NCBI GenBank assembly: GCA_963798485.1
Contig: CAWCTR010000014.1
Span: 224,001-288,000, forward strand
Length of the DNA stretch: 64,000 nucleotides
Direction: 5' to 3'
Source of the DNA: an uncultured delta proteobacterium
GTDB taxonomy: Bacteria > Desulfobacterota > Desulfomonilia > UBA1062
The position numbers were made by a program, and so were the translations under genes. The notes under the pieces were generated by a model that worked only from the letters and a program-made list of their open reading frames with translations, was not told the origin of the DNA and did not search any database. This document shows positions 3,301 through 51,121 of the stretch, one piece after another; position 1 is the stretch's first letter; the number at the start of each line of letters is the position of its first letter.

Positions 3301-4503
3301 ATCACCTCCCATGACAATAAACCTGAAGTCTCAGGGCTGCTCACCCTGGAGGATATCGCCTATACCATACCCATAAACGGACAGCGTTTGTACGCTATGA
3401 ATGGAAAGATCAGTATCCAGGATGACAAAATCTTCATCGAAGACCTAACCGGCAGGATCGATACAGGCTCTTTCAAGATGGAAGGTACTATAACTCGTCA
3501 AGGGTTTACACCAAGCTCAGTCGATCTGAAGACCCAGTTCACGGCATTGCCGATTTCGATCCCTGATATGATGGACTTCACCGTAGATGCCGAGGCCTCT
3601 CTTAATGCCTCTTCCGACCACTCCCAGCTCAAGTCCGATGTGATCATCCTTGATGGGACATATTATAAGGATGTACAAGTGAACCTACTGACCGGTGTTA
3701 TTGAACGCGTTCTACCAATACCCAAGCAGGGTAAGGAGCAGTTCATACCAACCCCGTTGCCCTTTATGAAGAATATGAACCTCGAAATCAACATCAAGCG
3801 CAGGGGTGATGTGAAGGTGGGAAACAATGTTGCAGATCTCTCTCTCAACCCGGATCTGAAGATTATCGGCACCCTGGTCAATCCTGTCCTGACCGGCAGG
3901 ATAGCAGTTACCGACGGCACCGTGAACTTTCAGAACAATGATTTCACGGTCTCACGCGGGGTCATTGATTTCCTCAACCCATACAAAACCCAGCCCACTG
4001 TGGACATTAAGGGCGAGGCCAAGGTCAGGGACTGGACTATTGACCTTGCTATTGAGGGACCGCTTGACAATATACAGTTCAATCTAACCTCGACACCCGC
4101 AGAGGAGCCTCCGGATATACTTTCCCTCCTGATCGTCGGGAAGACATCGCGTGAACTCACACAGAGCCAGACCGGGTTAACGGTTTCTCCGACAGCCATG
4201 GCCGCTGAGCTTCTAAACTCCACCTATGGCAGGCAGGTCAAGAAGGCCGCATCCCTTGACATCCTAGAGCTGAAGGCATCCGAATTCTCTACTTCGGATA
4301 AGGGAGAAAACCTCAAGCTGACCCTCGGCAAAGAGTTGTCCAGGAGGATGATCCTGGAATACCAGGTGGAAACCAGCAATACACAGACCGTTCAGAGGGG
4401 CATAGCTGAGTATAAGATCCTTGAGAATCTCATTGTTAACGGCTATCAGGGCACTGATGGAGTCTATGGTACGGATATCGAACTCAAATACGAGTTCCGC
4501 TGA
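307..4503 (+). CDS. tamB: Translocation/assembly module TamB (DUF490)
   Basis: 1398 aa, N-terminal TM anchor, repetitive beta-taco sequence, DUF490-like C-terminus ending YEFR; adjacent to an Omp85 gene. Confidence 0.85.
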   Translation: MNRALKILLIAACTVATLMVCLFGAAYLYLLTDPGKNFLLHTINTLYPGKISGTKIELSLLTQEVALENAILCGPDGKQVLKANHVYLRMNLPALLRYKLIFETIDIKRPVFVLELDKDGRLNIESAFVGKTPGNSPFNVYINSLNCEGGTFSYIGHDNKPIIKLENFDLLMNSAFETDTTLHLSVPKADMSLFVADKKINLGAGKASFTLFNDRIRDIHVTTKNGSSTATLTGSVTDMAKKAQLHCNLNLNTDIADIRDALGFGPDNTGRITGSITAIHDYDNPVVTVSLGYAGGDLKGLKINKAFLDCSMTDRVADIKDLHAAYASGVIDITGIADLRKAFSEGYFEGIKEEDAITYDLSITGTSLLISDLPGMPKGLRGKLSPRIVLKGSGVSANSVHLDAQFAALVQGITSGSFMKGDEVTLAGRVSYRKDMLNIKSLTARNRGISATSEGNINLVTRELDGTITLDASQIGDLLKGSGIDATGALKASSRISGTLKKPLADITVHVEGTNINDITLGTIDLKALLGHDGRLDVGSCSITNRTSAIQLKGSIQVFSQFPAMVSNPDILIDSDLRSVNPSDFFKKLPLSGMVNGHVSAKGPLSDISADMRLDGKELSTSDIPLGDAVLTGSLSQGLLTISRLDFTNKHSTMLITGDAALFDPAQKHLNTDPDIHLKAQGNNLHVEDFFDKATGTFSMSAIMEGSMLHPIGDMAIAAKNLDLGFQRFQKLDIKIQADGGRFWIDPAILTLSGGENLNATGWLSTDGKYSFSLGTQGLSLENLDFIKGHESVKGKIFLNASGEGNLSNPTLAGRIAATNIIFDDKPLDDLTFSFELKDNKVSMQGNWNFSLKAVHDLSSGDFSTTVIFAETELAPYFVITGRPTFSGRLTGRIDAQGNSRSLKSIDLIADISTLDILQNNKMLIMGRTINGSYKHGLLSIPQTRFTFGDKGWFDLKGSGDSVKSLTLDAEGVIPAEVFGMFDEDLSDISGLIHVSSKITSHDNKPEVSGLLTLEDIAYTIPINGQRLYAMNGKISIQDDKIFIEDLTGRIDTGSFKMEGTITRQGFTPSSVDLKTQFTALPISIPDMMDFTVDAEASLNASSDHSQLKSDVIILDGTYYKDVQVNLLTGVIERVLPIPKQGKEQFIPTPLPFMKNMNLEINIKRRGDVKVGNNVADLSLNPDLKIIGTLVNPVLTGRIAVTDGTVNFQNNDFTVSRGVIDFLNPYKTQPTVDIKGEAKVRDWTIDLAIEGPLDNIQFNLTSTPAEEPPDILSLLIVGKTSRELTQSQTGLTVSPTAMAAELLNSTYGRQVKKAASLDILELKASEFSTSDKGENLKLTLGKELSRRMILEYQVETSNTQTVQRGIAEYKILENLIVNGYQGTDGVYGTDIELKYEFR

Positions 4504-4507
4504 AAAT

Positions 4508-7333
4508 ATGCGCCCTGAAGCAAAACATCTCACTCTGTTACTATTCCTCATGCTCCTCTTGGCTACGCCCTGCCAGGGTCAGGAAGGTTCAAGCCAGGGT
4601 ATGCATATACCCAGTGAATATGCTGCCTTCGATGGCATGATTGTTAAGCTTATTCATATAGAGCTTATAGAATGCCCTTGGTGCACCAACACAATCGAAA
4701 ACCTGGCACGGGATCTTATCAATCTGCGTGTTGGAGAACCGTTTTCTAAGAAGCAGTATCAGCAGTCAATCGATGCCCTCATGCTCTCTAAGAGATTCGG
4801 AGCGGTGATCCCTGAAATAGAACGGGTTGAAGAAGGCATCAAAGTCACCTTCCTTCTCACTCCCTACAGAGAGATCAAGGACATTCAGATTCACGGTGAG
4901 TACCCTCTGTTCAAAAGCGATGTCTTAAAGTCCATGAACGTTTATCCTGGTGATGCACTGCTGCCTGATTCACCCGCAGTACTAGAGAAACTTATTGGTG
5001 ACCTGTATATAAAAGAAGGCTACAGAAACCCCCATATTTCCGTAACAGCAGGAAAAGACTTAAAAGGCGGGTTGGTAATCCTCGATGTGAGTATTAGACC
5101 CGGCCCATATTATTTTCTCGATTCCCTGAAGATAAGAGGAAACCATGCAATCATCTATGCCGAAATCAAGTCCCGCATGAACTCTTGGCGATCATCGTTT
5201 TTCATCAGGGAATCGGGCCGTTTCATAGAGAAGGAATTCACCCAGGATATAAAAGACCTCTTAGTCCTCTACTGGCAGCGGGGATACCCTGAATGCGAGA
5301 TACAAGAATCCGTCAATAAAAATGAGGCGACCGGCGAGGTGAAGGCCGAAGTTAACATTACGGAAGGGCCTTACTATGAACTATCCTTCTCCGGGAACAA
5401 GTGGTTCAAGTCATATACACTCAAGGATGATATACCGATCTTCATAAAAGGAAATAGGCGAGACAAGGGCATAAAAAACGGTATCAAGGAGATTAAGGAA
5501 CGATATCGAAAAGATGGTTTCCTTTTCACCGAAATCGAAATCCTTGAGGAGAAGGTAACCATAAAGGATGAAAAGATACGAAAACTCAATCTTTTAATCA
5601 AGGAGGGCCCCAGGACTCTTGTAGAATCCATACATTTTTCCGGCAACAGTTACTTCAGCGAGGAAGAACTGATAAATAAAATTCAGACAGGCAAGGCACC
5701 CTTCTATTCTCGGAAAATCTTTAATCCTGATATTTTGGAAAAGGACCTGGCATCTATTCGCGAGCTGTACCTTACCCGTGGATACAATGAAGTATCCGTA
5801 TCTCATGAACTGACCTGGAATAAAGATAAAACGGGTGTTTCAGTTCTTGTTAAGATCACCGAGGGTGTAAAGACCGCTGTCTCGTCTGTCAGGATATTGG
5901 GCCTTAAGACAATTCCCGAAAAAAAGGCCTTTAGTATCCTGCAACTTAAAGAAGGCAAGCCCTTCAGAAGTGATGTCATAAAGTCTGATGAGACCGCCCT
6001 TTCAGGGTTTATCTCGGAAAATGGCTACCCGTACGTGAGCGTGAAGACGGAAGTTGTCATGTCTAAAGATAATACCGAGGCTGCCATTACGTACGCTGTT
6101 GATGAAGGTCAGCGCATGACCATGGGAAACATCTATTACCGGGGCAACTTCAAGACAAGGACGAGTGTCATCAAGAAGGAACTGGGTATTGAGCCCGGAC
6201 AGCCGTTCTCGCTTAAAACCATGCTTGAAGGACAAAAAAATATCCGGAATATGGAGGTCTTTGATTCGGTACAATTTAAGACCTTCGGGATCAAAGAGGA
6301 GAAAGACCGCGTCACGCTGCTCATTGATATGGAGGAGACCGAACCCTACTATGTCCAGGCCGCTACCGGCTATGCTTCTGACCGCGGGTTGTATGGGAAC
6401 ACGCGTGTCGGCGACCACAACATCTTCGGATTGAACAAGGACGCATGGATCGGCGGCGAGCTGAGCCAAATCGGCTACCAAGGCGGGCTCAGCATCACCC
6501 AGCAGAGGATCTTTGATACCCCCGTTACCAACACCAATGCACTCTCCTATGAGAAAAAGGCAGAGTTTAACCAGATCTTCGGGACCTCGGTCTGGACTTC
6601 GTCATGTAACTTTTTGCGGGTATACAAACCGCATATAACAACATCGCTTGGCTTCAGGTATGAATGGAGAGATCAATTTCTCAAGGATAGATCATTTACA
6701 ATTCCGCCGGGAGATGAAGATTCTTACGAGCCCCGTGGTTCACTGATAACCACCCCATTCATCTCCTATGACACCAGGGATTCCTTCGTAAGGCCCAAAG
6801 AGGGGTTTTATTCCTCTTATTCAGTGGATATATCAAAGGGTTATCAGAATTCCCTGGATAATTTCTTAAAACATTATCTGAATCTCCGTTACTACTACAG
6901 CCCATTCCAGAGGCTCACCCTGGCCTGGCTTGGTCGTTCAGGCTATATCTACACCTATGGGAAGAAAGGTCAGCTCCCGGTGGACCAGCTCTTCTATTTG
7001 GGCGGGACTATGGATGTGAGGGGATATAATGAGAACATGCTCAGGTATGATACCAGCGGAAACCCGGTAGGCGGCCGCCTGTCGCTTGTGGGAAGCATGG
7101 AGGCGCGTATAGAAGTTTCACATAATTGGGAGACAGCCCTCTTCTATGATACGGGTTCGGTCAGGAAGGCGCTCGTGGATGCAGGGTCTGATATCTTCAG
7201 GTCCTCTGTCGGTATCGGGCTCAGGTATGTCACCCCCATCGGCCCAATGGGATTGCTCTATGGCTACAAGATTCATCCCAAAGAAGGCGAGAGCCCGGGC
7301 AGATTCCTTTTCTCGTTGGGATATACATTTTAA
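4508..7333 (+). CDS. Omp85-family (BamA/TamA-like) outer membrane protein with multiple POTRA domains
   Basis: POTRA repeats (I.F.GN, Y...GY), VRGY motif, terminal GYTF; likely start ATG 4508 followed by a signal peptide. Confidence 0.85.
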   Translation: MRPEAKHLTLLLFLMLLLATPCQGQEGSSQGMHIPSEYAAFDGMIVKLIHIELIECPWCTNTIENLARDLINLRVGEPFSKKQYQQSIDALMLSKRFGAVIPEIERVEEGIKVTFLLTPYREIKDIQIHGEYPLFKSDVLKSMNVYPGDALLPDSPAVLEKLIGDLYIKEGYRNPHISVTAGKDLKGGLVILDVSIRPGPYYFLDSLKIRGNHAIIYAEIKSRMNSWRSSFFIRESGRFIEKEFTQDIKDLLVLYWQRGYPECEIQESVNKNEATGEVKAEVNITEGPYYELSFSGNKWFKSYTLKDDIPIFIKGNRRDKGIKNGIKEIKERYRKDGFLFTEIEILEEKVTIKDEKIRKLNLLIKEGPRTLVESIHFSGNSYFSEEELINKIQTGKAPFYSRKIFNPDILEKDLASIRELYLTRGYNEVSVSHELTWNKDKTGVSVLVKITEGVKTAVSSVRILGLKTIPEKKAFSILQLKEGKPFRSDVIKSDETALSGFISENGYPYVSVKTEVVMSKDNTEAAITYAVDEGQRMTMGNIYYRGNFKTRTSVIKKELGIEPGQPFSLKTMLEGQKNIRNMEVFDSVQFKTFGIKEEKDRVTLLIDMEETEPYYVQAATGYASDRGLYGNTRVGDHNIFGLNKDAWIGGELSQIGYQGGLSITQQRIFDTPVTNTNALSYEKKAEFNQIFGTSVWTSSCNFLRVYKPHITTSLGFRYEWRDQFLKDRSFTIPPGDEDSYEPRGSLITTPFISYDTRDSFVRPKEGFYSSYSVDISKGYQNSLDNFLKHYLNLRYYYSPFQRLTLAWLGRSGYIYTYGKKGQLPVDQLFYLGGTMDVRGYNENMLRYDTSGNPVGGRLSLVGSMEARIEVSHNWETALFYDTGSVRKALVDAGSDIFRSSVGIGLRYVTPIGPMGLLYGYKIHPKEGESPGRFLFSLGYTF

Positions 7334-7351
7334 AAAGGGGTATGTTCAAAC

Positions 7352-9043
7352 TCACTCCAGGTCAAGCCCCAGCTGCCCCCCGGGGTTCATGATGTTGTTC
7401 GGGTCAAAGTGTCTCTTGAGCGCCCTTAAAACTGCCATTTGCTCCGCTCCGAGATACGCCCCGATCCAAGGTGCGATCATGCGGCCGATACCGTGGTGAT
7501 GACTCAAGGAGCCTCCGCATTTGTCAATATGGTCTATAATCCCTCTTTGAAATGTCCTGAATTCATCAAGGTCATCCATCTTTGCCAGGAAGATAAAGTA
7601 GAGGTTCGTGCCCTGCGGGTAAAAATGGGATGCATGGGTCATACACATAGTATGAGGCCGTGACTTGATGTGTTCCCTTACGCCCTGGTGCACGGCATGC
7701 AGGTTATCCCATTTCACAGAGCACTCCAGCGTATCGATAACAACCCCGAAATCCATGAGGTCTTCCCGCATGTACGGTTCTTTATAGCGGGTATGTTCCC
7801 ATTTTTTCGCAGCATACCCGGTCAGTGAAATAGCCCCGAACTCTTTGCATATCCTCTTTGCCTGCCGTTCGATATTCCTGGTAAAGGTAGCCTCTCCTTC
7901 AGCGCTTCCCAGGCAGAGGCAGCGCTGCATGGGCCTGTACCCCCTGCCTTTGAGAAAGGCATCCACAAACCCGGGCATCCCGTAGAGTTTGAGGCCCCTT
8001 TCGGTCTCCTCAGGATCGGATATGCGAAAGATGGCAGGCATGCCGAATTCACCCTGGCAGATCTCCCTGCCGGCGTTCACGGCCGCCTCCCATGTAGGAA
8101 ACATGAAGCTGAAGCGCCTGGTATTCCCGGGCATAGAGCGGTAAATCTTCATGGTGGCTTCCACCAGTACCCCATAAGTCCCCTCGCTGCCCTTCATGAT
8201 GTCGTTTACCTTGGGTCCTGTTGCGCATGCAGGGAAATCATGAGTCTTGATGGTGCCCACGGGTGTTACGTACTCCTGGCTGATGACCAGGTCATAGGCA
8301 TCCCCATAGTAGGATGATGCCTGGCCTGAACCCAAGGTCACGATCCAGCCGCCCACGGTTGAATACTCAAAAGACTGGGGAAAGTGGCCGCAGGTGTACC
8401 TTTGATTCGTATGGAAGAGCTCCGGGGCCCTATGCAGGGCCTCTTCATAGGCAGGCCCGTATAATCCTGGTTGCACCCTGGCGGTCTGGTTGGCTTCATT
8501 GACTTCGAGAACCTTGTTCATATGGGTGCTCATGACGAGCGAGATACCTCCCTTTTCCGGTCTCACTCCAAAGTTCACCGAGCTGCCGGCCCCGAAGGCA
8601 TAGACAGGTATCCTGTTTTCATTGCAATAGGCAACGATATGCTGCACATCTTCGGCGGTGCGGGGGTGCACCACAAGGTCAGCCACCTGATTGATAATGC
8701 CCTTTCTGAGTTCCATCATCTCCTCGGTAGTTTTTCCCAGCGCGTATTTAACCCTGCTGTAATCGTCGGAGGTCACATTCTCCTTGCCCACAATGGCCTC
8801 AAACCACTCCATATGATGAGCTTCCAGGGCAGCCGGCCTGTTCAGAGCGACACTCCCCAGACCCTGATCTTTTTTGGTTCGGAAGTCCTCATCTTTCATG
8901 GAGAACTCTTCTTTTATCATCTCAAACCACTTTGCGCTCGGATGTTTGAAGATATGAGGGTCACCATATTTGAATATGGATCGGTAAGAACCTTTGGGCG
9001 GGGCAACTTCGGTCCATTTCGGCACGAACTTTTTCCTGATCAT
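7352..9043 (-). CDS. FAD-linked oxidase, alkyldihydroxyacetonephosphate-synthase-like
   Basis: GHFPQSFEYSTVGGW, GSEGTYGV, SHHHGIG, DPNNIMNPG. Confidence 0.8.
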   Translation of the reverse strand: MIRKKFVPKWTEVAPPKGSYRSIFKYGDPHIFKHPSAKWFEMIKEEFSMKDEDFRTKKDQGLGSVALNRPAALEAHHMEWFEAIVGKENVTSDDYSRVKYALGKTTEEMMELRKGIINQVADLVVHPRTAEDVQHIVAYCNENRIPVYAFGAGSSVNFGVRPEKGGISLVMSTHMNKVLEVNEANQTARVQPGLYGPAYEEALHRAPELFHTNQRYTCGHFPQSFEYSTVGGWIVTLGSGQASSYYGDAYDLVISQEYVTPVGTIKTHDFPACATGPKVNDIMKGSEGTYGVLVEATMKIYRSMPGNTRRFSFMFPTWEAAVNAGREICQGEFGMPAIFRISDPEETERGLKLYGMPGFVDAFLKGRGYRPMQRCLCLGSAEGEATFTRNIERQAKRICKEFGAISLTGYAAKKWEHTRYKEPYMREDLMDFGVVIDTLECSVKWDNLHAVHQGVREHIKSRPHTMCMTHASHFYPQGTNLYFIFLAKMDDLDEFRTFQRGIIDHIDKCGGSLSHHHGIGRMIAPWIGAYLGAEQMAVLRALKRHFDPNNIMNPGGQLGLDLE

Positions 9044-15568: not shown

Positions 15569-16537
15569 TCAATTGGGGGCATGTCTTTTCAAGAACGCCA
15601 TCTTCTTTTCATTTATCTCTGCTGCAACATCTGACAGGGCCAGGATATGAAATCCTCCTTCCACGATATGGATCTCGGCATTGGGTATCGATCCGGCTGC
15701 ATTTTGTGCATGATTAAGGGGTACGTCAAGATCATCGGTCCCATGGATTACCAATGCAGGGACGGCTACGTGTTCAAAGGGAAGGTTTTCTACCTTTATA
15801 AGCTGCCTCATATCGTTGTTCAGGCCCTTTGTCCGTAGTCTTGGAGGACTCATGCTCCTGATCAGGTCCATAAGTATCTTAAGGCGCTGCTCGTCTTTCA
15901 TGATTGCCCTCATGAGATTCATCACCTCCTCCTCACCTAGAGAGCTTTCCATCTCGGCCGTGGCCCAACCCACAAGCATTGGGGCATGATGCGCAATGAC
16001 ATCCGCCAGCCAGAGGGAAGGCCCGTTGAACATGAGGTGCCCGAAAAAGATGTTTTCACCAATGTTGTTATGATTTATCTCATATCTTTGGCTGACAGCG
16101 GATTCGAGGATTAATGCCCAGACCCGTTCAGGATAACGTGCGGCAAAATGGAGTGCAGAGGGGCCGCCTGCTGAATATGCAATGATTGCAGATCGATCTA
16201 TACCAAGTGCATCGAGAAGGGAGACAAAGGCATCGGCCTGCTCCTCAAATGTCCTTCCACTGTTCAAGGGGGTGCGGATATAACCCGGACGTGACCAGCT
16301 CAGTATGCGGTACCCCTTCCCGAACAGGTCGCTGAAAAGTGCCTCGGTCTGGTCATACCCGCCCGGCGCACCATGCATAACGGCAACAAAGGGGCCGCTT
16401 TCCCCATGGATGGTATATTCTATAAGTCCTTTATCGGTTTCAATCACCGTGCTGCCGGCTTTGAGCTCGGCAACGAGGTCTCTCTTCCAGCGGATATACG
16501 GACCATATTTTTCCCTTGCCCTTCTCAAGATGTTCAT
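15569..16537 (-). CDS. Alpha/beta hydrolase (Ser nucleophile), paralog 1
   Basis: HGAPGG, AYSAGG, HGTDD, GFH. Confidence 0.85.
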   Translation of the reverse strand: MNILRRAREKYGPYIRWKRDLVAELKAGSTVIETDKGLIEYTIHGESGPFVAVMHGAPGGYDQTEALFSDLFGKGYRILSWSRPGYIRTPLNSGRTFEEQADAFVSLLDALGIDRSAIIAYSAGGPSALHFAARYPERVWALILESAVSQRYEINHNNIGENIFFGHLMFNGPSLWLADVIAHHAPMLVGWATAEMESSLGEEEVMNLMRAIMKDEQRLKILMDLIRSMSPPRLRTKGLNNDMRQLIKVENLPFEHVAVPALVIHGTDDLDVPLNHAQNAAGSIPNAEIHIVEGGFHILALSDVAAEINEKKMAFLKRHAPN

Positions 16538-16666
16538 GCCCCGATTATACCACTTTCAAGCAGGAAAAGAGAAATATCATTATCATATAACCTTTTCAAA
16601 ACATCCATGCAGGCAACCGGGGTATTGACAGACACGTGGAAAGTGCTCTATAGAGCATCCATAATT

Positions 16667-16718
16667 CCGGGGAAGGAGTCCCCCCTGTAACCGCCAGGCA
16701 GGCTGATGACTCCTATCA
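16667..16718 (+). ncRNA. Fluoride riboswitch (crcB motif) #1
   Basis: GGGGAAGGAGTCCCCC...AACCGCC...GGCTGATGACTCCTA: P1 stem, GGAGT/ACTCC pseudoknot, CTGATGAC core; TTGACA at 16625; 22 nt upstream of ATG 16740. Confidence 0.85.
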
Positions 16719-16739
16719 GAGCAATCTGAAGGAGCGTAT

Positions 16740-18404
16740 ATGGAGTTTGTATCTAAAAGCCTACCCATCTCAGACACCAAGGAATTGGTCGGCAGGGTCA
16801 ACAAAGCAGCCTCCCGGTTTCACATCGTTTCCCTGAACCGCCAGATCGAAGTCTGCGAAAGCCTCCTCAAGGAAAACCCGCTTATCGATGTGGCCATACT
16901 CGGCCAGTTCAAGGCGGGCAAGAGCTCGTTCATCAACAGCCTTGTGGACCGGGAAATACTCCCAGTCGGAGTCATCCCGGTCACCACGGTGATCACCCGT
17001 CTTCAATACGGCCCGCAAGAACGCTCGGTGATCACATATATCGATGGTACAAGGTCTGAGATAGGTATCGAAGAGCTGGGGAAGTTCATTTCCGAGGCAC
17101 AGAACCCATCAAATTCCAAGAACGTCGATATCGTGGACATAGAGTTGCCTGCACTCGAAGCTTATCCCGGGCTCCGTCTGGTGGATACCCCGGGGCTGGG
17201 AAGCGTGTTCAAGTATCACAAGGAGGTGTCCGAGAACTGGCTCCCCGAGGTCGGGGCTGCCGTCCTTGCCATCAGTTCCGACCGCCCGCTCTCCGAGCAT
17301 GATCTCAATCTTATCGCAGACCTCTCCCATCATACCCCCATGATCGTCATCCTCCTCACCAAGGCCGACCTTTTGACCCCGGATCAGCAGAATGAGGTGG
17401 TGCAATTCTTCCAGCAGACATTAAAGCGGAAGCTGAACCGTGAGTATCCCATATTCCCCTATTCAACCCGATCCGGGATGGAATTCTTCAAGCACCGGAT
17501 CGAGTCGGAGCTCCTTTCCGGCTTGTCCAAGAACCGGGATCAGGAGTTTAACCGCATACTCAACTACAAAACCCAGTCACTGCTCAAAAGTTGTCTAACC
17601 TATCTCAATATCGCCATGAAGACTTCTGTCGAGGCCGATCAGGACCGGGAGGCGCTCCGCTCTCAGATCCTGAATGAAAAGGTCGGCTATGATCAGATCA
17701 GGGAAGAGATCGGCGTCATTACAAGAGAATGCCAGAGGCAGACCCGGGCCCTCCTGACGAATCATCTTGAAAAATTCAAGGATCCCCTCACGGAGAAGCT
17801 CAAGGCCGAGCTGTCCGGAGAGATGCCTTCCTGGAAAGGAAACCTGTGGAGGCTGACCAGAAGGTATGAAGCATGGGTGACCGAAACCATGGAAGAAGAG
17901 ATACGGCATATCTCCAAGACGGAAAACCATCACTTCTACGGCACCCTGAACAAGGCACATAACAGCCTCACCCGGTACCTTGAAACCTTCAGGATGCTGC
18001 TCAATGACAATATTGACAAGGTGCTGGGAATAAAGCTTGCGGAGGCGGACTGGAAGATCGAGTTGACAGAGCCTGATAATCCCGACATCGGGGTTCTCTA
18101 CACCTTTGATTTCAAATTCGATCTCCTCTGGTTCCTCATCCCCATGTTTATTTTCAGGAGGTTTTTTGAACAACATTATCTGGGAGAGATCCCCTGGGCG
18201 ACGGAGGTGAATATCTCCCGGCTCATTACCCAGTGGGAAACCAGGATCAACAAGGCCATCGACGAAATGCGCAAACAGGCGGAAGGCTATATCAAGGATG
18301 AGATATCCACGATCGATGCCCTATTGTCATCACAGGGACAGGAAAAGACCCATGAGCTTTATGAACTGATTTCAGAACTTCAGGGATTTGTAGTCAATGT
18401 TTGA
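16740..18404 (+). CDS. Bacterial dynamin-family GTPase
   Basis: G1 GQFKAGKS, G2 PVTT, G3 DTPG, G4 TKAD; helical stalk and hydrophobic paddle (FDLLWFLIPMFIF). Confidence 0.85.
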   Translation: MEFVSKSLPISDTKELVGRVNKAASRFHIVSLNRQIEVCESLLKENPLIDVAILGQFKAGKSSFINSLVDREILPVGVIPVTTVITRLQYGPQERSVITYIDGTRSEIGIEELGKFISEAQNPSNSKNVDIVDIELPALEAYPGLRLVDTPGLGSVFKYHKEVSENWLPEVGAAVLAISSDRPLSEHDLNLIADLSHHTPMIVILLTKADLLTPDQQNEVVQFFQQTLKRKLNREYPIFPYSTRSGMEFFKHRIESELLSGLSKNRDQEFNRILNYKTQSLLKSCLTYLNIAMKTSVEADQDREALRSQILNEKVGYDQIREEIGVITRECQRQTRALLTNHLEKFKDPLTEKLKAELSGEMPSWKGNLWRLTRRYEAWVTETMEEEIRHISKTENHHFYGTLNKAHNSLTRYLETFRMLLNDNIDKVLGIKLAEADWKIELTEPDNPDIGVLYTFDFKFDLLWFLIPMFIFRRFFEQHYLGEIPWATEVNISRLITQWETRINKAIDEMRKQAEGYIKDEISTIDALLSSQGQEKTHELYELISELQGFVVNV

Positions 18405-18450
18405 ACACCCTTACCCGGCATAGGCAAAAAACATCAAGACGGAGGATTCC

Positions 18451-19650
18451 ATGGAACTATCTTTTACTATCGCGACCCTGTGGGTCGGCCTAGCGGTCAT
18501 TGCAACCATTATTGCTTATCACATCCGCATCTCAATGGCCCTGGTCGAAATCTGTGTCGGTATGGTGGCAGGGGCGTTATGGGAACACTACTTCGGCAAG
18601 GAACTGCTGGGAGCAAACGTTGATTGGCTGCGCTTTCTCGCTTCCACGGGGGCCATTCTCCTGACCTTTCTGGCAGGCGCAGAACTGGACCCTGAGGTCA
18701 TCGGCTCGAAATGGAAAGAGGTTACCATTGTCGGGCTTATCGGCTTTCTAGCCCCTTTTTTAGGGTGTACCGCGCTTGCCCGCTATGCCCTGGGATGGAC
18801 CCCTTCAGCAAGCCTTCTTGCAGGAGTAGCCCTCTCGACCACGTCCATGGCGGTGGTCTATGCAGTGATGATCGAGACCGGCTTCAACAATACCGAGTTT
18901 GGCAAAGGGATCCTCGGCGCATGCTTTATAAATGACCTCGGAACCGTCATCGCCTTGGGACTCATCTTTGCCCCCTTCTCCTATAAGACCTTCATCTTTA
19001 TCGGGGTAACCGCTGCCGCGATTGCGTTGCTTCCGTTTATATCCAAGCGCATCACACGGAAATACGGACATCGGACAGCCGCCATCAGGGCCAAGTGGAT
19101 ACTGTTCGTTCTGTTCGGTCTCGGAGCGCTGGCGGTGTGGTCCGGCAGCGAAGCGGTATTGCCTGCCTACCTGGTAGGGATAGTGCTGGCCGAATTCGCC
19201 GGTAACGATCACTTATGGGTGAGGAGGATGCGAACCCTCACCATAGGATTTCTGACCCCGTTCTATTTTATCCGGGCAGGCTCCCTGGTTTCGCTTCCTG
19301 CCATCATGACTGCACCGCTGATCTTCATTCTCCTTCTGGCCGGGAAGGTTGTCAGTAAGATATTCGGACTCTATCCCGTGATCGGCTTTTTCAGAAAGGA
19401 AACCAATGAGCGCTGGTATTACACCCTGATGATGTCGACCGGGCTCACCTTCGGCACCATATCGTCACTCTATGGCTTCACCCATGGGATCATCACGCGC
19501 GGGCAGTATTCCTTTCTGGTTGCCGGTGTCATCGCAAGCGCCGTTATCCCCACGATAATCGCCAACCTTGCATTCATCCCCTATTCCCTCCTGCCCGACC
19601 GGCCCGAGCCTACGGTTGAAGAGGTGGAAGATGGCCTTGGGGATGAGTGA
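18451..19650 (+). CDS. Cation:proton antiporter (CPA2-like)
   Basis: Polytopic membrane protein; TFLAGAELD, STTSMAVV, FINDLG, STGLTFG. Confidence 0.85.
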   Translation: MELSFTIATLWVGLAVIATIIAYHIRISMALVEICVGMVAGALWEHYFGKELLGANVDWLRFLASTGAILLTFLAGAELDPEVIGSKWKEVTIVGLIGFLAPFLGCTALARYALGWTPSASLLAGVALSTTSMAVVYAVMIETGFNNTEFGKGILGACFINDLGTVIALGLIFAPFSYKTFIFIGVTAAAIALLPFISKRITRKYGHRTAAIRAKWILFVLFGLGALAVWSGSEAVLPAYLVGIVLAEFAGNDHLWVRRMRTLTIGFLTPFYFIRAGSLVSLPAIMTAPLIFILLLAGKVVSKIFGLYPVIGFFRKETNERWYYTLMMSTGLTFGTISSLYGFTHGIITRGQYSFLVAGVIASAVIPTIIANLAFIPYSLLPDRPEPTVEEVEDGLGDE

Positions 19651-19901
19651 GATGAGTGATAGGAGAGAAAATGGGTTTCAGCTTGTTCCCTACACGTTGT
19701 GGAAACTATCATAGTTAAACAAGCATAATGGGGGCGGCATGGCATGTTCTGGAAAGGTTGGCAACATGTGAAGGGAGGCAAAGCATGACAGAAAAGACGG
19801 CCGTATCTCGTGAGGCTGTGCTCGATGTTCGCAAGCTGGACAATCCCTCCCGTTCGTGATTGACAGCTTTACCCTTAATACAGTACACATTTAACGAAGA
19901 T

Positions 19902-19949
19902 CGGGGATGGAGTCCCCCATAATTGCCGGGCAGGCTGATGACTCCTGTC
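19902..19949 (+). ncRNA. Fluoride riboswitch (crcB motif) #2
   Basis: GGGGATGGAGTCCCCCATAATTGCC...GGCTGATGACTCCTG, close to consensus; TTGACA at 19860. Confidence 0.9.
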
Positions 19950-19971
19950 AGAGAAATCTGAAGGAGAAGGT

Positions 19972-20162
19972 ATGGAGCTTGCCCTCAAATGTCATCCGGC
20001 TTCAGGTATTATACAATTCCCCTCAAGAACACAGTTATCATTCGTTCAATGCGTGCAAAGGCACGCTCAAAGGCGGCTTCGCCGTATGACCAGTAGTTCA
20101 CCATTATTACAGCCGTTGTTCATGTTCCTCAGATTACCAGCTGACTACAAAAAGGAGGCACT

Positions 20163-20166
<4 letters not shown>
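19972..20166 (+). CDS. Short leader or remnant ORF behind riboswitch #2
   Basis: AGGAG SD; MELALKCHP resembles the dynamin start MEFVSKSLP; stop overlaps the HIT start (ATGA). Confidence 0.35.
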
Positions 20167-20979
<813 letters not shown>

Positions 20980-21054
20980 CGAATAGTACCAAAGCCTGAG
21001 GAGTCATTGTCATGCCGACTTAGATGATGGATATCATCAGGTCCGCAGATTATA

Positions 21055-21735
21055 TTATTGATCTTGGTTCATTTCAGGCCCGGTGGAAAATTTGACCCTG
21101 TAATCTTTCACCGCTCCCTGTTTGAATCTCTCGAATGTCTGCTCCACCTCTGCGCTGTAATCAATTCCGGATTCATATGTGCAAACCTTGATGCTGTTAT
21201 CCTTTATGAGCAGGCAATACTTTGCGGCGGATAAATCGGCTTTAAGCTTTTTCGTTTCAGCTAAAAGGGACGTAAAATGGCCGGATTCGGCATAGTTCGT
21301 TATATACTCGCGTAAGGCTAAAAAGCCTCGCGATTTTAAATCTGCAAGGGTTAACTCATGTACCAGGCGATGAACGGCTTCACAATAAATATCTATTGTT
21401 TCTAAAAACCATCCTTCCTTGTGGTATTTGTACTGAAGCTTTTCCACAAGGGCAAGATGCTGTCGCATTGTGCGCATTTCTTGTGCAAATGTTTTTATAT
21501 TCTCAAAGAGAATTTTATTTTCCAGGTCCTGCATTATTTCATGACGATACTTGATCGTGTCGATATCGGATAGGGAAGTGTAAAAAAACGGCTTTAGATT
21601 ATATTCCTGCCTGTGGGCCGTGATGGTATCGATAACCTGATCAAGATTCAAATCAACAAAAAAGGCGGGCGCTTCAAGCGATTCTTTTTTTGTGCCCTCT
21701 TCAGTTCTTTCAAATAATATGCTGTGGAAAGTCAT
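21055..21735 (-). pseudogene. MutS-related protein, truncated before the ATPase domain
   Basis: MTFHSILF...FFVDLNLDQ...YRHEIMQDLE...FERFKQGAVKDY, recalled as the N-terminus of the standalone MutS-domain-V family; ends at 226 aa with no P-loop. Confidence 0.65.
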
Positions 21736-21793
21736 GAGACAAACACCTCCTGGGCCATGATGCGGACGCACCACTTCAACTCTACCGCCGCAT

Positions 21794-21845
21794 GGTAGGA
21801 GTTATCAGCCCGGCCCGGGCGTTTGTCAGGGGAACTCCATCCCTT
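21794..21845 (-). ncRNA. Fluoride riboswitch (crcB motif) #3
   Basis: Minus strand AGGGATGGAGTTCCCCTGACAAACGCCCGGGCCGGGCTGATAACTCCTACC. Confidence 0.9.
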
Positions 21846-21857
21846 TGTAAGGGTCAA

Positions 21858-21886
21858 ATGATAGGAATTTCTAGAAGTACAGTCAA
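21858..21886 (-). promoter_or_regulatory. Sigma70 promoter for riboswitch #3
   Basis: TTGACT-17 nt-TATCAT directly upstream of the aptamer. Confidence 0.7.
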
Positions 21887-23651: not shown

Positions 23652-25373
23652 GTGAGTAGAGATTATCTGAATTTGATACGTTCCTTGTTAAGGGGTCTGC
23701 CGGAAAATACCCGCACCCTCATACTCACTATTATTTATGGTGTTATAGCCGGGTCGGCGGCAGTATGCTTCATGACCCTTCTTAACCTGGTTTATGAAAA
23801 TACCTTCATTGTCTTCTCCTCTCATTCCAAACTCTTCTTCCTGATTGCAAGTTTTATCTTGGTCGTGAGCACCTCACTCATGGCAGGTTTCCTGCTTTTT
23901 AAATTCGACCCGGATGCGGCAGGGAGTGGCATTCCACAGCTCAAGGCTGCTTATTGGAAAGAAGTAGGCTATGTGCCGTGGCGTCCGGTTCTCATCAAGT
24001 TTATAGCCGGCGTACTCAATATCGGCGGAGGCGCCAGCCTGGGCCGTGAGGGGCCCACCGTTTATATCGGCGGTGGTATAGCCTCAAATCTTGCAGGGTT
24101 CATGGGGGTTCCCATACGGAGGCGGCGAAGCGCGGTTGTTATCGGTGCATCTGCCGGATTGGCCGCTGCCTTTAATGCACCTCTTGCTGCCATAACATTC
24201 ATCCTCGAAGAGTTTGTCAGCGATATCGATAACCGTTTTATCGGCCGCGTCGTACTCTCTTCCCTGCTCGGGGCATTTGTCGTATACGCCTTTATAGGCA
24301 GGCAGCCGGCTTTCAAACTCCCATCCATCGAATCCGTATCCTGGTCGCACTACACGATTGTCCCTGTAGTCGCCGTCTTTGCCGCTCTTGCCGGCGTCAT
24401 CTTTCAGCAGGCAACGCTCTCCATAAGGTACCGTCTTAAGAGGCAGAAGGCAGTTCCTGCCTGGCTTTTACCCTGTTTCGGAGGACTCATTGTATGGGTC
24501 ATCGGCTCCGCCGTCTTTTGTACTACCGGAAAGCTCGGGGTCTTCAGCCTCGGGTATCATGATCTCTCAAGCGCCTTGGATAATAATTTTATCTGGTGGG
24601 TTGCAGGAATCATGGTGGTTGCCAAGCTGCTGGCGACTATATTGTCCTATAGTTTCGGAGGATGCGGGGGAATCTTTTCACCTCTGCTCTTCATCGGCGG
24701 TATGTGCGGGTATTTCATCGGAGGCCTCACCGGTCATTGGATCCCGGTAACACCGTCCGATAGAGTCGTTCTTTCAGCGGTCGGTATGAGCACCTGCCTT
24801 GGAGTGGTCGTCAGGGCGCCCCTCACCTCTTTATTGATTGTTTTTGAAATGACACACCAGTTCGACCTCATCCCGGGATTGATGATCGGCACTTTCATCG
24901 GCGTCATCATCTCTCATGCCTTCGGCAAAGAGAATTTCTATGATGCGTCGCTGCTTCAAGACGGGCATGAGCTTATAAAGATCAGACCGCCCTTGGACAT
25001 AAAGGGCTGGCAAAACCTCCCCATTTCCTCAATTGCCAATCCACACCCGATTGTCGTGGATAATCTTGATGAAAGCCATCTTCAGCCCATACTTGATAAC
25101 CACCCATACAATTGTTTCCCTATCCTTTTAGAAAATAATGAGGTCGGTGTTATAACCCGGGATCACATGGAGTCCATTATTGCCCATAAGACAGTACCGG
25201 AAATTCCCAAAGCCGTATTCTGTCACCCGGATCAGACTGTCAAGGATGTCGGCAATAAATTTATAGAATCGCCAAGCGGCGTCATCATTGTCATAGACGA
25301 AAAAACAGGAGACATAACCGGTATTGTAACCCTCCATGATCTTCTCCGCGCACAGGCTTCTATTTTAGGTTAA
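23652..25373 (+). CDS. CLC chloride channel/antiporter with CBS domains
   Basis: GSGIP, GREGP, GIFSP; C-terminal CBS pair. Confidence 0.9.
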   Translation: MSRDYLNLIRSLLRGLPENTRTLILTIIYGVIAGSAAVCFMTLLNLVYENTFIVFSSHSKLFFLIASFILVVSTSLMAGFLLFKFDPDAAGSGIPQLKAAYWKEVGYVPWRPVLIKFIAGVLNIGGGASLGREGPTVYIGGGIASNLAGFMGVPIRRRRSAVVIGASAGLAAAFNAPLAAITFILEEFVSDIDNRFIGRVVLSSLLGAFVVYAFIGRQPAFKLPSIESVSWSHYTIVPVVAVFAALAGVIFQQATLSIRYRLKRQKAVPAWLLPCFGGLIVWVIGSAVFCTTGKLGVFSLGYHDLSSALDNNFIWWVAGIMVVAKLLATILSYSFGGCGGIFSPLLFIGGMCGYFIGGLTGHWIPVTPSDRVVLSAVGMSTCLGVVVRAPLTSLLIVFEMTHQFDLIPGLMIGTFIGVIISHAFGKENFYDASLLQDGHELIKIRPPLDIKGWQNLPISSIANPHPIVVDNLDESHLQPILDNHPYNCFPILLENNEVGVITRDHMESIIAHKTVPEIPKAVFCHPDQTVKDVGNKFIESPSGVIIVIDEKTGDITGIVTLHDLLRAQASILG

Positions 25374-25459: not shown

Positions 25460-25915
25460 CTAAGCTCCTTGCCCAGGCTCTTTCTTTACCAGAAAAATAG
25501 AGCAGGGCATCTTCCGGATTATCGCATCATTACTGTTACCGACCAGAAAGTGTTCGATACGGCTTTCTTCATGGGAGCGCAAGACGACCAGATCAATCTT
25601 TTCTTTCCTGATAACCTTCAGAATTTCATCAACGGGATCGCCTTGCTTAATAATCTTTTTGATCTTTACGCCTTTCTTTTTCTCGCCGGCGATAATAGTA
25701 TCCAGTTCCACCTTGATTCTTTCCATACCCCTCTTGCGTTCTTCCTCCTGCGACACCTTGGGCAAAGATCAGCCTTGCAGCCAGAAGGTATCGACTACAT
25801 GGATCACGGTAAGTTCAGCGCCATACTTTGCGACCAGTGAAGTCGCGTAATGAACCGTCCTCTGACAATATTGAGTCATCCAGCTCACCGCAAGTATTCT
25901 TCTAATATCTTCCAT
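25460..25915 (-). pseudogene. Universal stress protein with in-frame TGA
   Basis: MEDIRRILAVS...IHVVD...LQG*SLP...GDP...DLVVL...PCSIFLVK; TGA at 25769-25771. Confidence 0.75.
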
Positions 25916-25930
25916 TATACACCTCCAATT

Positions 25931-26956
25931 TTATATTGTATCACCAGCTAACTTATCACCATTCAGAATCAACCCGAATGATGGAACCATAGGATCTTCA
26001 TGGTTCTTCATGAACATGATCCGCTTTTCATTCACTTCATCTGCTTCATCGGATAAAGCCAGGATGTGAAATCCTTTCTCAACGATATAGAGTTCAGAGC
26101 CGGGGATTGATTCCGCTGCATTCCGGGCATGCTCTAAGGGGACATCGGAATCATCGCTGCCATGGATGATGAGTGTCGGCGTGGCCACGTGTTCAAGAGG
26201 GAGAGGGTCGATCTCTCTGAGCTGCTTCAGGTCGTTGTTCAGGCCCCTTGTCCTCAGCTTTGAAGGGCTCATACTCCTGATGAGCTCCATCAGTATCTTC
26301 ACGCGGTGCTCGTCTTTCATGATATCTCGCATCAGGTGCATCACGTCTTCCTCTTCCAGGGTGCTTTCCATCTCTATGGTTGCCAGTCCAACGAGATACG
26401 GCGCATGTTTTGCAAAAACATCCGCCAGCCAGAGAGATGGATTGTTGAACATGAGATGCCTGAACAGGATGTTTTCGCCGATATTGTTGTGATTCATTTC
26501 ATAACGCTTGCTCACAGCGCATTCGAGAATCAGGGACCATATCCGCTCAGGATAGCGGGAGGCAAAGTGTATCGCCGGAGGTCCGCCTGCAGAATATGCA
26601 ACGAGTGCGGTCTTTTCGATGCCCAGAGTATCGAGAAGTGCCTTGAAGGCATCGGCCTGCTCCACAAATGTCCTTCCTGTTTTCAGTGGAGTGCGTAGAT
26701 AACCCGGGCGAGACCAGCTCAGGATGCGAAACCCTTTTTCGAATAAGCCGTTGAAGAGGGCCGCTGTCTGATCGTACCCCCCCGGACCTCCATGCATGAC
26801 AGAGACATAGGGGCCGCTATCGTCACGGATCGCATATTCCACCGGACCTTTTTCGGTTATGATCACCCGGCTGCCTGCTTCGAGCTCACTAATAAGGTCT
26901 TTTCTCCACCGGATATACGGCCCGTATTTTGCCCTTGCCTTTTTCAGGATATTCAT
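25931..26956 (-). CDS. Alpha/beta hydrolase, paralog 2
   Basis: HGGPGG, AYSAGG, HGSDD, GFH; colinear with the 15569 gene. Confidence 0.85.
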   Translation of the reverse strand: MNILKKARAKYGPYIRWRKDLISELEAGSRVIITEKGPVEYAIRDDSGPYVSVMHGGPGGYDQTAALFNGLFEKGFRILSWSRPGYLRTPLKTGRTFVEQADAFKALLDTLGIEKTALVAYSAGGPPAIHFASRYPERIWSLILECAVSKRYEMNHNNIGENILFRHLMFNNPSLWLADVFAKHAPYLVGLATIEMESTLEEEDVMHLMRDIMKDEHRVKILMELIRSMSPSKLRTRGLNNDLKQLREIDPLPLEHVATPTLIIHGSDDSDVPLEHARNAAESIPGSELYIVEKGFHILALSDEADEVNEKRIMFMKNHEDPMVPSFGLILNGDKLAGDTI

Positions 26957-26997
26957 ATGGTAATCAATTTCCACCAGAGCCTATCTGTGACACCAAT

Positions 26998-27792
26998 CTA
27001 TTTCTTAGCCAACAATGGGGCCTTGGTCGGGTCGAAGATGCGGTATGCAATGAGTTTCACCCGGTCGTTGACGAGGAACCACGCCAGCGCATAGCCCCAG
27101 ATCAGAAACGCCCATTTCCAGCCGATGGGAACCATGAACCATCCGTAGACCGCGGCTACCGTCGCCAGCACCTTCGTGACCACCGCCGACCAGAAAAGCG
27201 CCGGTGCAGGCCGGATGGACCAGAAAGGCCCGCGTGTGCGCGTCACGAAGATCGTCAGATGGCCGGCCACCGCGAGCTTCAGGAACATGAACGTCTGCAG
27301 CAGGTCACGGCTGAGATGGAACGTCTGTTCGCCAAGGTAAAACAGACCGAACGAAGCGATCACGCCGGCCACACCCAACACGGTCGATATCCCCAGGACA
27401 AGCCTCATGTTCCATGCCTCGGGCCGGTCTGCATAGTGCACGTTGTCGTAGGCGATCGCGAGGATAGGGGCGTCGTTCATCAAAGCCAAGGAGGACGATC
27501 ATTACCGCGGTCACGGGATAGAAGTTGAAGACCAGGATCGCCAGTGTCATGAACAGCAGCACGCGGATGGTTTCGGCAATGCGATAGATCGCGTAGCTGT
27601 TCATGCGCTGGAAGGCCTTCCGACTCTCCTTGATGGCATCGATGATCACGGACAGGCCCGGGCTCATCAGCACTACATCAGCTGCCGCTCGGGCAGCATC
27701 GGTGGCGCCGGAAACGGCGATCCCGGCATCCGCCTTCTTCAGTGCTGGGGCGTCATTCACCCCGTCGCCGGTCATACCCACGATGTGGCCGT
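26998..27792 (-). pseudogene. P-type IIIA H+-ATPase C-terminal fragment with frameshift
   Basis: [43 protein letters not shown]; frameshift near 27490; no DKTGT. Confidence 0.85.
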
Positions 27793-28458
27793 CAGCGTGA
27801 TCTCGATCATCGGGTCATCCACCTGCTTGATGACTTGCGAAACAGCTAGGCCGACTCCCATCCCAATGAGCGCGCCGATGCCGACGATCTTGATAAAATC
27901 AAAGGCCAACCCGCCGGCCGTCACGCCTGTCCCTGTCACAAGCGCAAGGCTGAGCGTGAAGAAAACGATCGCGGTGCCGTCGTTGATGAGGCTCTCGCCT
28001 TCGAGCAACACAGAGAGACGTTTCGGGACACCCAGGTTTTTGAAGATCGCGACCACGGCGATGGGGTCGGTGGCGGAGATGATCGCGCCAAAGACCTGCG
28101 CGTGTTCCCAGGTAAAACCTTGAACGAAATTCAACGTGTTGGCGACCGGCGTCAAAATCAGGGCTGTCAGTGCGATCGCCGCAACCACGCCGGGCATGGC
28201 CAGCGAATTAATGGTGAGGCGGTTTCGCCAAAATTGCTTGAACTCGATGTAAAACGCGGCTTCAAAGAGCAGTCCTGGCAGAAAGATGTTGAACAATAAC
28301 GCCTTTGTCAGGTGGGGCGCTTCGAAGACATGCAGCAGCCCCAACACGAGGCCGGTGAAGACCAGGGCCACTGTGTAAGGAACGGACAGACGTTGCACCG
28401 CGATCGCTACGGCCGTGGCCACAACGAACAGCAAAATAAAGATTGTTTCTGTCTCCAT
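27793..28458 (-). pseudogene. NhaP/CPA1 Na+/H+ antiporter, N-terminal half only
   Basis: FLPGLLFEAA, SATDPIAV, EGESLINDG; breaks at IEITLT. Confidence 0.85.
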
Positions 28459-41574: not shown

Positions 41575-42066
41575 TCAGTTCAAAACCCAGTTCATCAGGA
41601 TACAATCAATAATGGCCCTGGCATTCTCTTTCACGCACGGGTCCATGGTGCTTCCCAGACGCGCGCACCGGATCTGAATGCCCACCAAATGAACCTCGCA
41701 GCTTAAGTCTTCCTCTATGAGCTGCGCGATAACCGTGATGGGAAAACGGTGCGTACTCAACGGTGCCTCATGCACGCGTGAATGGGAGAACGTCCGCACT
41801 TCGCCGGGCATGCCGTTGAAATCGGCGGCATCGATGATGACGGTCTTAGCGGGACGTGCCTCAAGTACACGGTGAAAGATCCTCTCAGGGCTGTCTCCGG
41901 CATTGATGATGATGATATTATCATGATCCGCAGGGAGATTTTCCGCTATGAAAACCCCGGCCCCGTCGTCTCCCCGCAGTGAATTACCCACCAGGACATA
42001 TGCCGTCCGGCCTGCATGGGCCGGGAGGAGTGCATTCCTTACCTCTTGGGACAGACTCTGGTTCAT
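41575..42066 (-). CDS. Hydrogenase maturation protease (HycI-like)
   Basis: VGNSLRGDDGAG, IDAA, STH. Confidence 0.9.
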   Translation of the reverse strand: MNQSLSQEVRNALLPAHAGRTAYVLVGNSLRGDDGAGVFIAENLPADHDNIIIINAGDSPERIFHRVLEARPAKTVIIDAADFNGMPGEVRTFSHSRVHEAPLSTHRFPITVIAQLIEEDLSCEVHLVGIQIRCARLGSTMDPCVKENARAIIDCILMNWVLN

Positions 42067-46007: not shown

Positions 46008-46230
46008 CTTACTTCCTTAATCCGGGGTTACGGATCATTTTCTTTAAACACCCGCTAAAACTATACTGTTTATTATTATAAGAGACCGTGACATGCAGGC
46101 AAGGGGTGTATCAGTGTTTGAAAAGTGCATGGAGCCGGCCCTGGTTATTACCAGGAGGTATTGACTATGTCGATTTGCAGGCTATTTACGCTATGAACAT
46201 ACATGAGCAAAACTCGAAAGGAGTTCTCTT

Positions 46231-46902: not shown

Positions 46903-46963
46903 GAAACCGGAGCCTGTTTCCGTGCCTTGGGTATAATGGTGCATATGTATTCCAGGGAGATGT

Positions 46964-47350: not shown

Positions 47351-47367
47351 TTTTAGCATCTACATAT

Positions 47368-47823: not shown

Positions 47824-47996
47824 AGATTCCTCCTTTGAGCAAATTAACAATGAATAGGGGTTAATGATGAGAAAACAAGATTCAACATTGATTTATCTCA
47901 TATCAATGTTATATTCTGTAAACTAAACAATGTACTCAATCGTCTGTATATAGAAGACAACATAATGGAATTATCAATAAAGAGATCGGAGTTGTA

Positions 47997-48281: not shown

Positions 48282-48466
48282 AATTACCTGAGATCAATCT
48301 TCAAGTACTGGATATCGGCATTATTCTCAGGTATTCAGTCATCAATAGCCTGAAGTCTGAAATGTAAAGTTACTACATTAGGCCATTGATGATCAGGGGG
48401 TTTATAACCAGGACAGTAATAGCCACCTTCATATGCATAAAATAAATACCTGAATGGAGGTTGCCC

Positions 48467-48904: not shown

Positions 48905-48937
48905 CCCTTATCCATATCCTTCTTTCGAGGTGAAACC

Positions 48938-49246: not shown

Positions 49247-49271
49247 TGGCATTAAACATACAAAGACAAGC

Positions 49272-51111: not shown

Positions 51112-51121
51112 GGCGGCACCT

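Follow-up and report, generated by a model that had tools for sequence, protein, structure and literature searches.

A fluoride-riboswitch cluster headed by a dynamin-like GTPase in an uncultured delta proteobacterium

The fluoride (crcB) riboswitch, RF01734, is an ON switch, in which fluoride stabilises a pseudoknot against a competing 3′ hairpin (PMC10687018, PMC2864571). Among the Proteobacteria, such riboswitches lead enolase genes and MutS-like pairs in fluoride clusters described for Enterobacter cloacae FRM (ppaC-uspA-eno-gpmA-crcB) as well as for plasmid islands of Citrobacter and Burkholderia. Among the riboswitch-linked classes, Na+/H+ antiporters rank second in frequency, fluoride tolerance varies more than exporters can account for, and fluoride toxicity limits the degradation of organofluorine compounds (PMC11139923). 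Here we analyse a 64-kb stretch of an uncultured delta proteobacterium (contig CAWCTR010000014.1, positions 224,001–288,000; hereafter, the window), where three fluoride aptamers lie in one gene cluster, the first of them directly in front of a gene for a dynamin-like GTPase.

The cluster shares with the described Proteobacteria clusters the riboswitch-led enolase and MutS-like genes and, with the Citrobacter and Burkholderia islands, the same antiporter family (54% identity) and the presence of several switches. Unlike these clusters, it has no crcB, begins with the dynamin gene and contains a HIT-family gene, and its enolase and MutS-like genes are broken. Of its products, the antiporter, the enolase and the MutS-like protein are known from other fluoride clusters, and the three-switch cluster as such is ordinary, because the plasmid islands also carry several switches; the new result is the dynamin link. 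The regulon is of a known kind, and its strongly conserved dynamin-like target is apparently unreported: a full-text literature search returned no paper linking a fluoride riboswitch with a dynamin, the gene tables of Weinberg 2010 and Baker 2012, where a prior entry is possible, lying outside its coverage, and the term dynamin is absent from PMC11139923, PMC5533749 and eight supplements of PMC2864571.

The genes linked to riboswitches have reliably guided the assignment of protein functions, and a trigger is known for only a minority of bacterial dynamin-like proteins. From the sequence data, fluoride suggests itself as what triggers a set of dynamins without an assigned job; a fluoride switch that is near-universal in one dynamin subfamily offers a specific and cheap stimulus, sodium fluoride. 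The fluoride response also gains uncharacterised candidates, namely a HIT variant, DUF6062 proteins and a prenyltransferase-fold protein.

The fluoride switch and the dynamin-like GTPase behind it

An earlier note on this DNA had proposed three crcB-class aptamers, each in a 5′ leader. The Rfam scan of the whole window bears this out: aptamer 1 (16660–16722, plus strand, 47.1 bits), aptamer 2 (19894–19954, plus strand, 48.5 bits) and aptamer 3 (21789–21853, minus strand, 45.1 bits) all exceed the RF01734 gathering score of 34 bits, match the model over its full length (1–64; E from 2e-10 to 3e-9) and lie in 5′ leaders. They are the only above-cutoff Rfam matches in the window, and a permissive search found no fourth, weaker fluoride aptamer there at E ≤ 1. 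Directly before aptamer 3, a sigma70-like promoter is matched by consensus only (10/12; 21858–21886, minus strand). Over 68 nt that reach through the start codon, leader 1 is 82% alike to leader 2; their aptamers are paralogous, one leader being a duplicate. Aptamers 2 and 3 keep the conserved GAUG loop residues; aptamer 1 has a GAAG loop, its A at 16674 replacing the U present in 108 of 109 parsed aptamers (eight further aptamers were unparsed).

As in other RF01734 members, the P1, P2 and pseudoknot pairings are kept, in 98.3% of the 540 cells of the aptamer alignment; the pseudoknot is paired in 100% of its cells and is nearly invariant, and the aptamer helices contain 27 double-sided pair changes, compared with 4.9 in shuffles. 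Aptamers of related loci score 37–60 bits against the fluoride consensus, and their core residues are invariant.

To follow the switch–dynamin link, we scanned GTDB genomes with an alignment of 28 sequences and obtained 554 stretches encoding dynamin relatives; the best 80 of them (L001–L080) were used. These match with 52–89% identity, and the genomes include Syntrophales, Smithella, Syntrophorhabdus, Desulfomonilia, Desulfobacteraceae and one of Spirochaetota. According to a covariance model (R1) built from 46 aptamers, a same-strand aptamer ends 17–154 nt before the dynamin match in 78 of the 80 loci, the two exceptions being L074, with the aptamer one gene upstream, and L024, with none. 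Because 35 of the 78 detected aptamers belong to the training set of R1, the check was repeated with Rfam alone on 27 loci (the first seven, then mostly short ones, and both exceptions); the aptamer is direct in 25 of these, one gene upstream in one and absent from one. The genes flanking the switch–dynamin unit vary widely, many loci having no other fluoride gene near the junction, and the 80 loci form one well-supported clade (0.995) in a tree for which 73 of 129 GTPase domains were used. The dynamin is a regular, selected target of the fluoride switch in this lineage, far more regular than the earlier note, which listed it as one intact gene behind an aptamer, could see, and fluoride control in the lineage is very likely.

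Beyond the 80 loci, we considered distant plasmid dynamins, matched over the GTPase domain only, at 15 loci with flanks of 3–8 kb. Twelve of them lack an aptamer, and three adjoin one: in two Burkholderia plasmid loci, which belong to eno/ppa/MutS islands, the order is aptamer, hypothetical gene, dynamin, and in Lichenicola one dynamin gene runs divergently from an aptamer–crcB unit. The Lichenicola CrcB itself (L082, 4425–5654, minus strand; 409 aa) is a fusion, in which a longer C-terminal part follows the Fluc domain.

The dynamin-like GTPase of the window (16740–18404, plus strand; 554 aa) matches PF00350 Dynamin_N with 85.4 bits (cutoff 27) and has intact G1–G4 motifs (GQFKAGKS at position 55, PVTT at 80, DTPG at 149, TKAD at 207). 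Its structure model (predicted local distance difference test 78, predicted template modelling score 0.65) consists of the GTPase domain, a helical neck and a trunk with a distal tip, whose residues 441–470 are of low confidence. IniA, BDLP and mitofusin are the top matches of the model (Foldseek E 5e-17; Z 18.6–19.2), and Cj-DLP is matched as well; compared with IniA, 453 positions are aligned with Z 18.8 and a root-mean-square deviation of 9.3. The protein thus resembles IniA (6j72/6j73), BDLP1 (2j68), Cj-DLP1/2 (5owv) and DynA in its GTPase domain with motifs G1–G4, its helical neck and trunk and its hydrophobic tip. A conserved hydrophobic segment at about residues 456–470 would, in the model, be positionally equivalent to the lipid-interacting loop of IniA (PMC6715688), and may likewise bind lipid.

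The differences from these dynamins are that the gene is controlled by a riboswitch, is usually solitary and has a structural identity of only about 16%. The latter value sets the protein apart as a separate subfamily, and the best NCBIfam dynamin model scores 36.8 bits, compared with its cutoff of 1600. No second GTPase domain is present in the window, and one is found within the fetched flanks in only one of the 80 loci, so that the dynamin is solitary in 79. Its closest named homologues are from Desulfomonilia (89–90% identity), and the ratio of nonsynonymous to synonymous substitution rates (dN/dS) against close relatives is 0.15–0.19; the dynamin, the antiporter and the HIT protein are under purifying selection. 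The wider family has 1872 representatives at E ≤ 1e-30, in clusters mostly of Verrucomicrobiota, Acidobacteriota, Bacteroidota and Bacillota, with no longer fused forms at this threshold, which is weak evidence. A role in phage defence (LeoA/LeoBC dynamins) was considered and rejected, as PADLOC gave only P-loop-level matches of 27 and 24 bits, and no full-length Leo match; a phage search with the dynamin gave one weak match.

Leader 1 is predicted to form an OFF hairpin (16710–16734, plus strand; −12.7 kcal/mol, z −3.07), in which CUCCU pairs with the Shine–Dalgarno sequence AGGAG at 16730–16734; a similar hairpin would hide the Shine–Dalgarno sequence of leader 2 (19942–19966, plus strand; −12.7 kcal/mol, z −2.24). 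In both leaders, the CUCCU arm is the 3′ strand of the pseudoknot, and its AGGAG partner lies 5 nt ahead of the ATG. Such a hairpin, masking the ribosome-binding site, implies by analogy with the family mechanism a fluoride-ON switch, likely sharing the ON logic of a competing 3′ hairpin with RF01734. Unlike the usual RF01734 members, it hides the Shine–Dalgarno sequence without a U-tract; the dynamin as lead target and the U-to-A change of aptamer 1 are further differences. Neither leader has a U-tract, and no intrinsic terminator occurs 3′ of the window aptamers on the coding strand; from the missing U-tract we infer that switches 1 and 2 probably act by translational control. The fold of leader 3 does not exceed shuffles (z −0.42), and no platform was resolved for this switch.

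In related leaders, the pseudoknot strand CUCC pairs downstream in 64 of 78 cases, compared with 9–19 in each of 20 shuffles; in 55 of the 78, an in-frame start comes after the hairpin partner, and 47 have a U-tract, the hairpin being kept though the inner stems differ. Seven of these leaders (L021, L023, L030, L050, L053, L072, L073) contain tandem hairpins with CUCCU...GGAG between the aptamer and the start codon, which suggests two-step platforms.

Other genes of the cluster and its decay

Behind the dynamin gene lies a gene for a CPA2-type cation/H+ antiporter (18451–19650, plus strand; 399 aa), which matches PF00999 Na_H_Exchanger with 108.6 bits and TIGR00932 with 103 bits, below the cutoff of 238 for the latter. 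Its dN/dS against close relatives is 0.09–0.10, and its ND motif at residues 161–162 is kept in 14 of the 18 cluster members over 350 aa; we take this acidic motif to be typical of cation transport. Homologues with 54–57% identity stand behind fluoride aptamers on both plasmids checked, in the enterobacterial one together with usp, two MutS-like genes and crcB.

Directly after aptamer 2 comes an open reading frame (ORF) of 64 codons (19972–20166, plus strand), whose stop overlaps the start of the HIT gene. It has no Pfam or NCBIfam match, its first codons resemble the 5′ end of the dynamin gene, the copy in L003 is open too (57 codons), and a dN/dS of 0.6 on 55 codons is a weak signal; the ORF is possibly a translational coupler. 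The HIT-family protein (20163–20630, plus strand; dN/dS 0.09) has an invariant stretch of 11 residues and belongs with the Hint and Fhit hydrolases by its Pfam HIT domain. Unlike them, it lacks the third histidine of the H-x-H-x-H motif, which reads HTHIF (HxHxF), and this histidine is absent in nine of nine aligned sequences. Since Fhit makes and hydrolyses nucleoside 5′-phosphorofluoridates in vitro (PMC4613722), clearance of fluorinated nucleotides by the HIT protein may be taken, by analogy, as a lead only.

The enolase remnant (Enolase_C; 20656–20979, plus strand) comprises the last ~107 of 429 codons, with a dN/dS of 0.13 at a high synonymous rate. After the enolase stop, a short remnant at about 21025–21070 (plus strand) is shared with L003 (16176–16394); it presumably resembles the UvrA C-terminus. 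On the minus strand, behind aptamer 3, the MutS-like gene (21055–21735, starting with a ribosome-binding site at 21735) is reduced to its N-terminal 226 codons, with 37% identity over 217 aa to the N-terminal part of a plasmid MutS-like protein; the ATPase part is missing, and the dN/dS is 0.43.

In locus L003 the layout is fuller: a first switch precedes the dynamin, antiporter and GGGtGRT genes, and a second one the short ORF, HIT and the gene for a 429-aa enolase; convergent to these lies a MutS-like pair, the first gene of which is interrupted by an insertion. Compared with it, the window has lost the 5′ part of the enolase gene by a deletion just after HIT, and its MutS-like unit is cut short, with the ATPase domain and the second gene of the pair lost. 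The density of three switches is partly due to the duplication of a leader and to deletions that brought the units closer to each other; it is not exceptional, because five aptamers are found within 16 kb in each of the Burkholderia plasmid islands.

These results sort the gene assignments of the earlier note. The intact genes it named, dynamin, CPA2 antiporter and HIT, are intact, and the enolase and MutS-like genes are fragments, as it had it; the gene directly after aptamer 2 is the 64-codon ORF and not HIT. The antiporter, which it counted among non-canonical effectors, proved to be canonical, as it belongs to a known riboswitch-linked class (PMC11139923) and has plasmid homologues behind fluoride switches.

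HIT recurs as a cluster member in 17 of the 80 loci. By gene counts that are approximate, as ORF calling dropped some genes, enolase is found in 19 loci and CPA-type antiporters in 18; 16 loci encode the prenyltransferase-fold protein, 14 an AAA protein and 13 DUF6062-like proteins, and MutS-like genes occur in five. After dynamin, the antiporter is the commonest first gene behind aptamers (13 of 111). A recurring gene set, mostly behind a second aptamer, encodes a HEAT protein, a 314-aa protein, an AAA ATPase, a DUF6062 protein, a 140-aa helical protein and a prenyltransferase-fold protein (L007 at 4203–8251, L009, L022, L037, L041, L042); in L057 (4009–5853), a weak DUF6062 match is fused behind a helical region. 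GGGtGRT-family genes (PF14057), absent from the window, adjoin dynamin in eight of the 80 loci, among them L003 (12921–13913), L022, L059, L064, L067, L069 and L070.

Proposed role and competing explanations

We propose that the cluster serves a fluoride-stress regulon as its accessory arm, which does not itself export fluoride and which in this genome has partly decayed. When fluoride is absent, the 3′ pseudoknot strand of the aptamer would pair with the ribosome-binding site; when fluoride and Mg2+ are bound, the pseudoknot would retain this strand and translation would start, as expected from the family mechanism. Switch 1 would then turn on the dynamin-like GTPase and the cation/H+ antiporter, switch 2 the HIT protein and, formerly, the enolase, and switch 3, formerly, the MutS-like pair. 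Membrane roles are described for IniA and Cj-DLP (PMC6715688, PMC6104087), and antiporters counter the acidification caused by entry of hydrogen fluoride (HF) (PMC11139923). By analogy, the dynamin may protect membrane integrity and the proton gradient under fluoride stress: like IniA and DynA, it would maintain the membrane and keep proton leak low during acidification of the cell by incoming HF, and the antiporter would restore the pH. Fluoride itself would be exported by an unlinked Fluc or CLC-F, as the published prevalence of exporters suggests. We give the whole account, with the accessory arm, the membrane role of dynamin and the unlinked exporter, a probability of about 0.5.

Several observations weigh against it. 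The model behind the count of 78 loci had been trained on some of the same aptamers, as described above, and since the 80 best-matching loci form one clade, they may reflect a single ancestral recruitment. The fluoride-linked dynamins of Burkholderia and Lichenicola match in the GTPase domain only, and monophyly of all fluoride-linked dynamins is unsupported: the plasmid proteins did not group with the 80-locus clade in a tree of poor deep support. The dynamin is solitary, and pairs are the rule for most bacterial dynamins (PMC6104087). Folds of the whole leaders lack significance (z −1.65 and −1.68). Aptamer 1 may be weakened by its U-to-A change, because A16674 is in our alignment the equivalent of U11 of B. 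cereus, which extends the P3 stack (PMC10687018). Two of the three units in the window are broken, so its copy may be impaired. Finally, the surroundings of the 80 loci, which were selected by dynamin (36 of them at least 20 kb long), contain neither Fluc nor CLC-F over 1.2 Mb, an absence that the assumption of an unlinked exporter has to set aside.

The exporter was also sought in the window. No CrcB is among its 64 ORFs scanned with Pfam, and no Fluc-like frame was found by six-frame tblastn, phmmer and hidden Markov model searches, where the best non-control match has E 0.07 and the two Fluc queries used as positive control detect each other at E ≤ 5e-12. The CLC-CBS protein nearby (23652–25373, plus strand) has GSGIP, GREGP and GIFSP and none of the CLC-F signatures GNNLI/GMGLI, GREGT/V and GEVTP (PMC11139923); it is not preceded by a riboswitch and is not part of the regulon. 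Thus, the statements of the earlier note that no Fluc is present and that the nearby CLC is of the chloride type agree with our searches, the former for the 64 kb of the window only. Three CLC-like frames in the 80 loci also lack CLC-F motifs, and none of the 111 aptamers leads into an exporter. More than 85% of surveyed genomes have a fluoride exporter, and riboswitch regulation is limited to about 15% of the Flucs and about 30% of the CLC-Fs (PMC11139923); for this reason, export by an unlinked Fluc or CLC-F is probably a better guess than the lack of an exporter. The fluoride-stress regulon with non-canonical effectors, as the earlier note framed it, therefore holds for the fluoride-controlled cluster and for dynamin, with the antiporter to be taken out of the non-canonical part and the absence of an exporter tested over 64 kb.

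Among the competing explanations, compensation comes first, unlikely as it is: dynamin and HIT would be fluoride-inhibited phosphoryl-transfer enzymes, overproduced like enolase and pyrophosphatase, with a metal-fluoride trapping the GTPase in a GDP transition-state-like complex, so that the cell makes more of it. Enolase is indeed the commonest regulon neighbour (19 of 80 loci), overexpression of inhibited enzymes is a described response (PMC11139923, PMC5533749), and GDP-AlF4 serves as a transition mimic for dynamin-like proteins (PMC6104087). However, it is dynamin, with no known essential housekeeping role, that stands first behind the switch, no other GTPases are found behind the 111 aptamers, and the Cj-DLP crystal showed no AlF4 density (PMC6104087).

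It is somewhat less probable that a chance event once placed the dynamin behind the switch, where it has stayed at the operon head, that the cluster of the window is decaying and that the link says little about function. Such a passenger or relic would fit the single clade, the broken enolase and MutS-like genes of the window, the MutS-like insertion in L003 and the variant aptamer 1, but the switch–dynamin junction is kept in 78 of the 80 loci while the downstream genes change, the hairpin is kept with different inner stems, and distant dynamins are also found in fluoride islands.

Export by a non-canonical route, the strong form of the earlier note's reading, we consider doubtful to much the same degree; here the organisms would have neither Fluc nor CLC-F and would rid themselves of fluoride through the riboswitch-controlled antiporter or through a vesicle or membrane process driven by dynamin. 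The lack of Fluc and CLC-F motifs in the window and in the 80 loci, and the succession of genes behind the 111 aptamers (an exporter in none, the antiporter first in 13), speak for it; against it, loci chosen by dynamin cannot reveal unlinked exporters, and crcB occurs alongside the antiporter family, in which the acidic ND motif, presumably a mark of cation transport, is retained. The published prevalence of exporters, mostly without a riboswitch, also stands against this route (PMC11139923). A bolder conjecture, to which we give similarly little credence, is that solitary dynamins with HIT, DUF6062 and prenyltransferase-fold partners form a dedicated defence and, in syntrophic anaerobes, replace Fluc and CLC-F together with the antiporter; if true, this would be a third bacterial route of fluoride tolerance, based on membrane remodelling. 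That the aptamers of this lineage sense something other than fluoride, as the unusual targets (dynamin, HIT, DUF6062, prenyltransferase-fold and AAA proteins) might hint, is very improbable given their scores of 37–60 bits against the fluoride consensus, their invariant core residues, and the enolase, antiporter and MutS-like genes still under their control.

Further features of the window and related loci

Close to the switch–dynamin unit, nhaA-I riboswitch motifs occur in L002 (9740–9785, minus strand), back to back with the unit, and in L004 (7183–7228 and 7729–7787, minus strand). Paralogous alpha/beta hydrolase genes, 71% alike over 300 nt, flank the cluster of the window (15569–16537 and 25931–26974, both on the minus strand) at a distance of 10.4 kb; L001 has one copy. 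A universal stress protein gene with an in-frame TGA (25460–25930, minus strand) has no riboswitch ahead. The region 26998–28458 (minus strand), where an N-terminal piece of a CPA1 antiporter (27772–28458) abuts frameshifted C-terminal pieces of a proton P-type ATPase, is a second deletion scar. Farther downstream, at 41575–57000, two NiFe hydrogenase clusters, HydF and an acetate transporter are encoded, which are not linked to a riboswitch.

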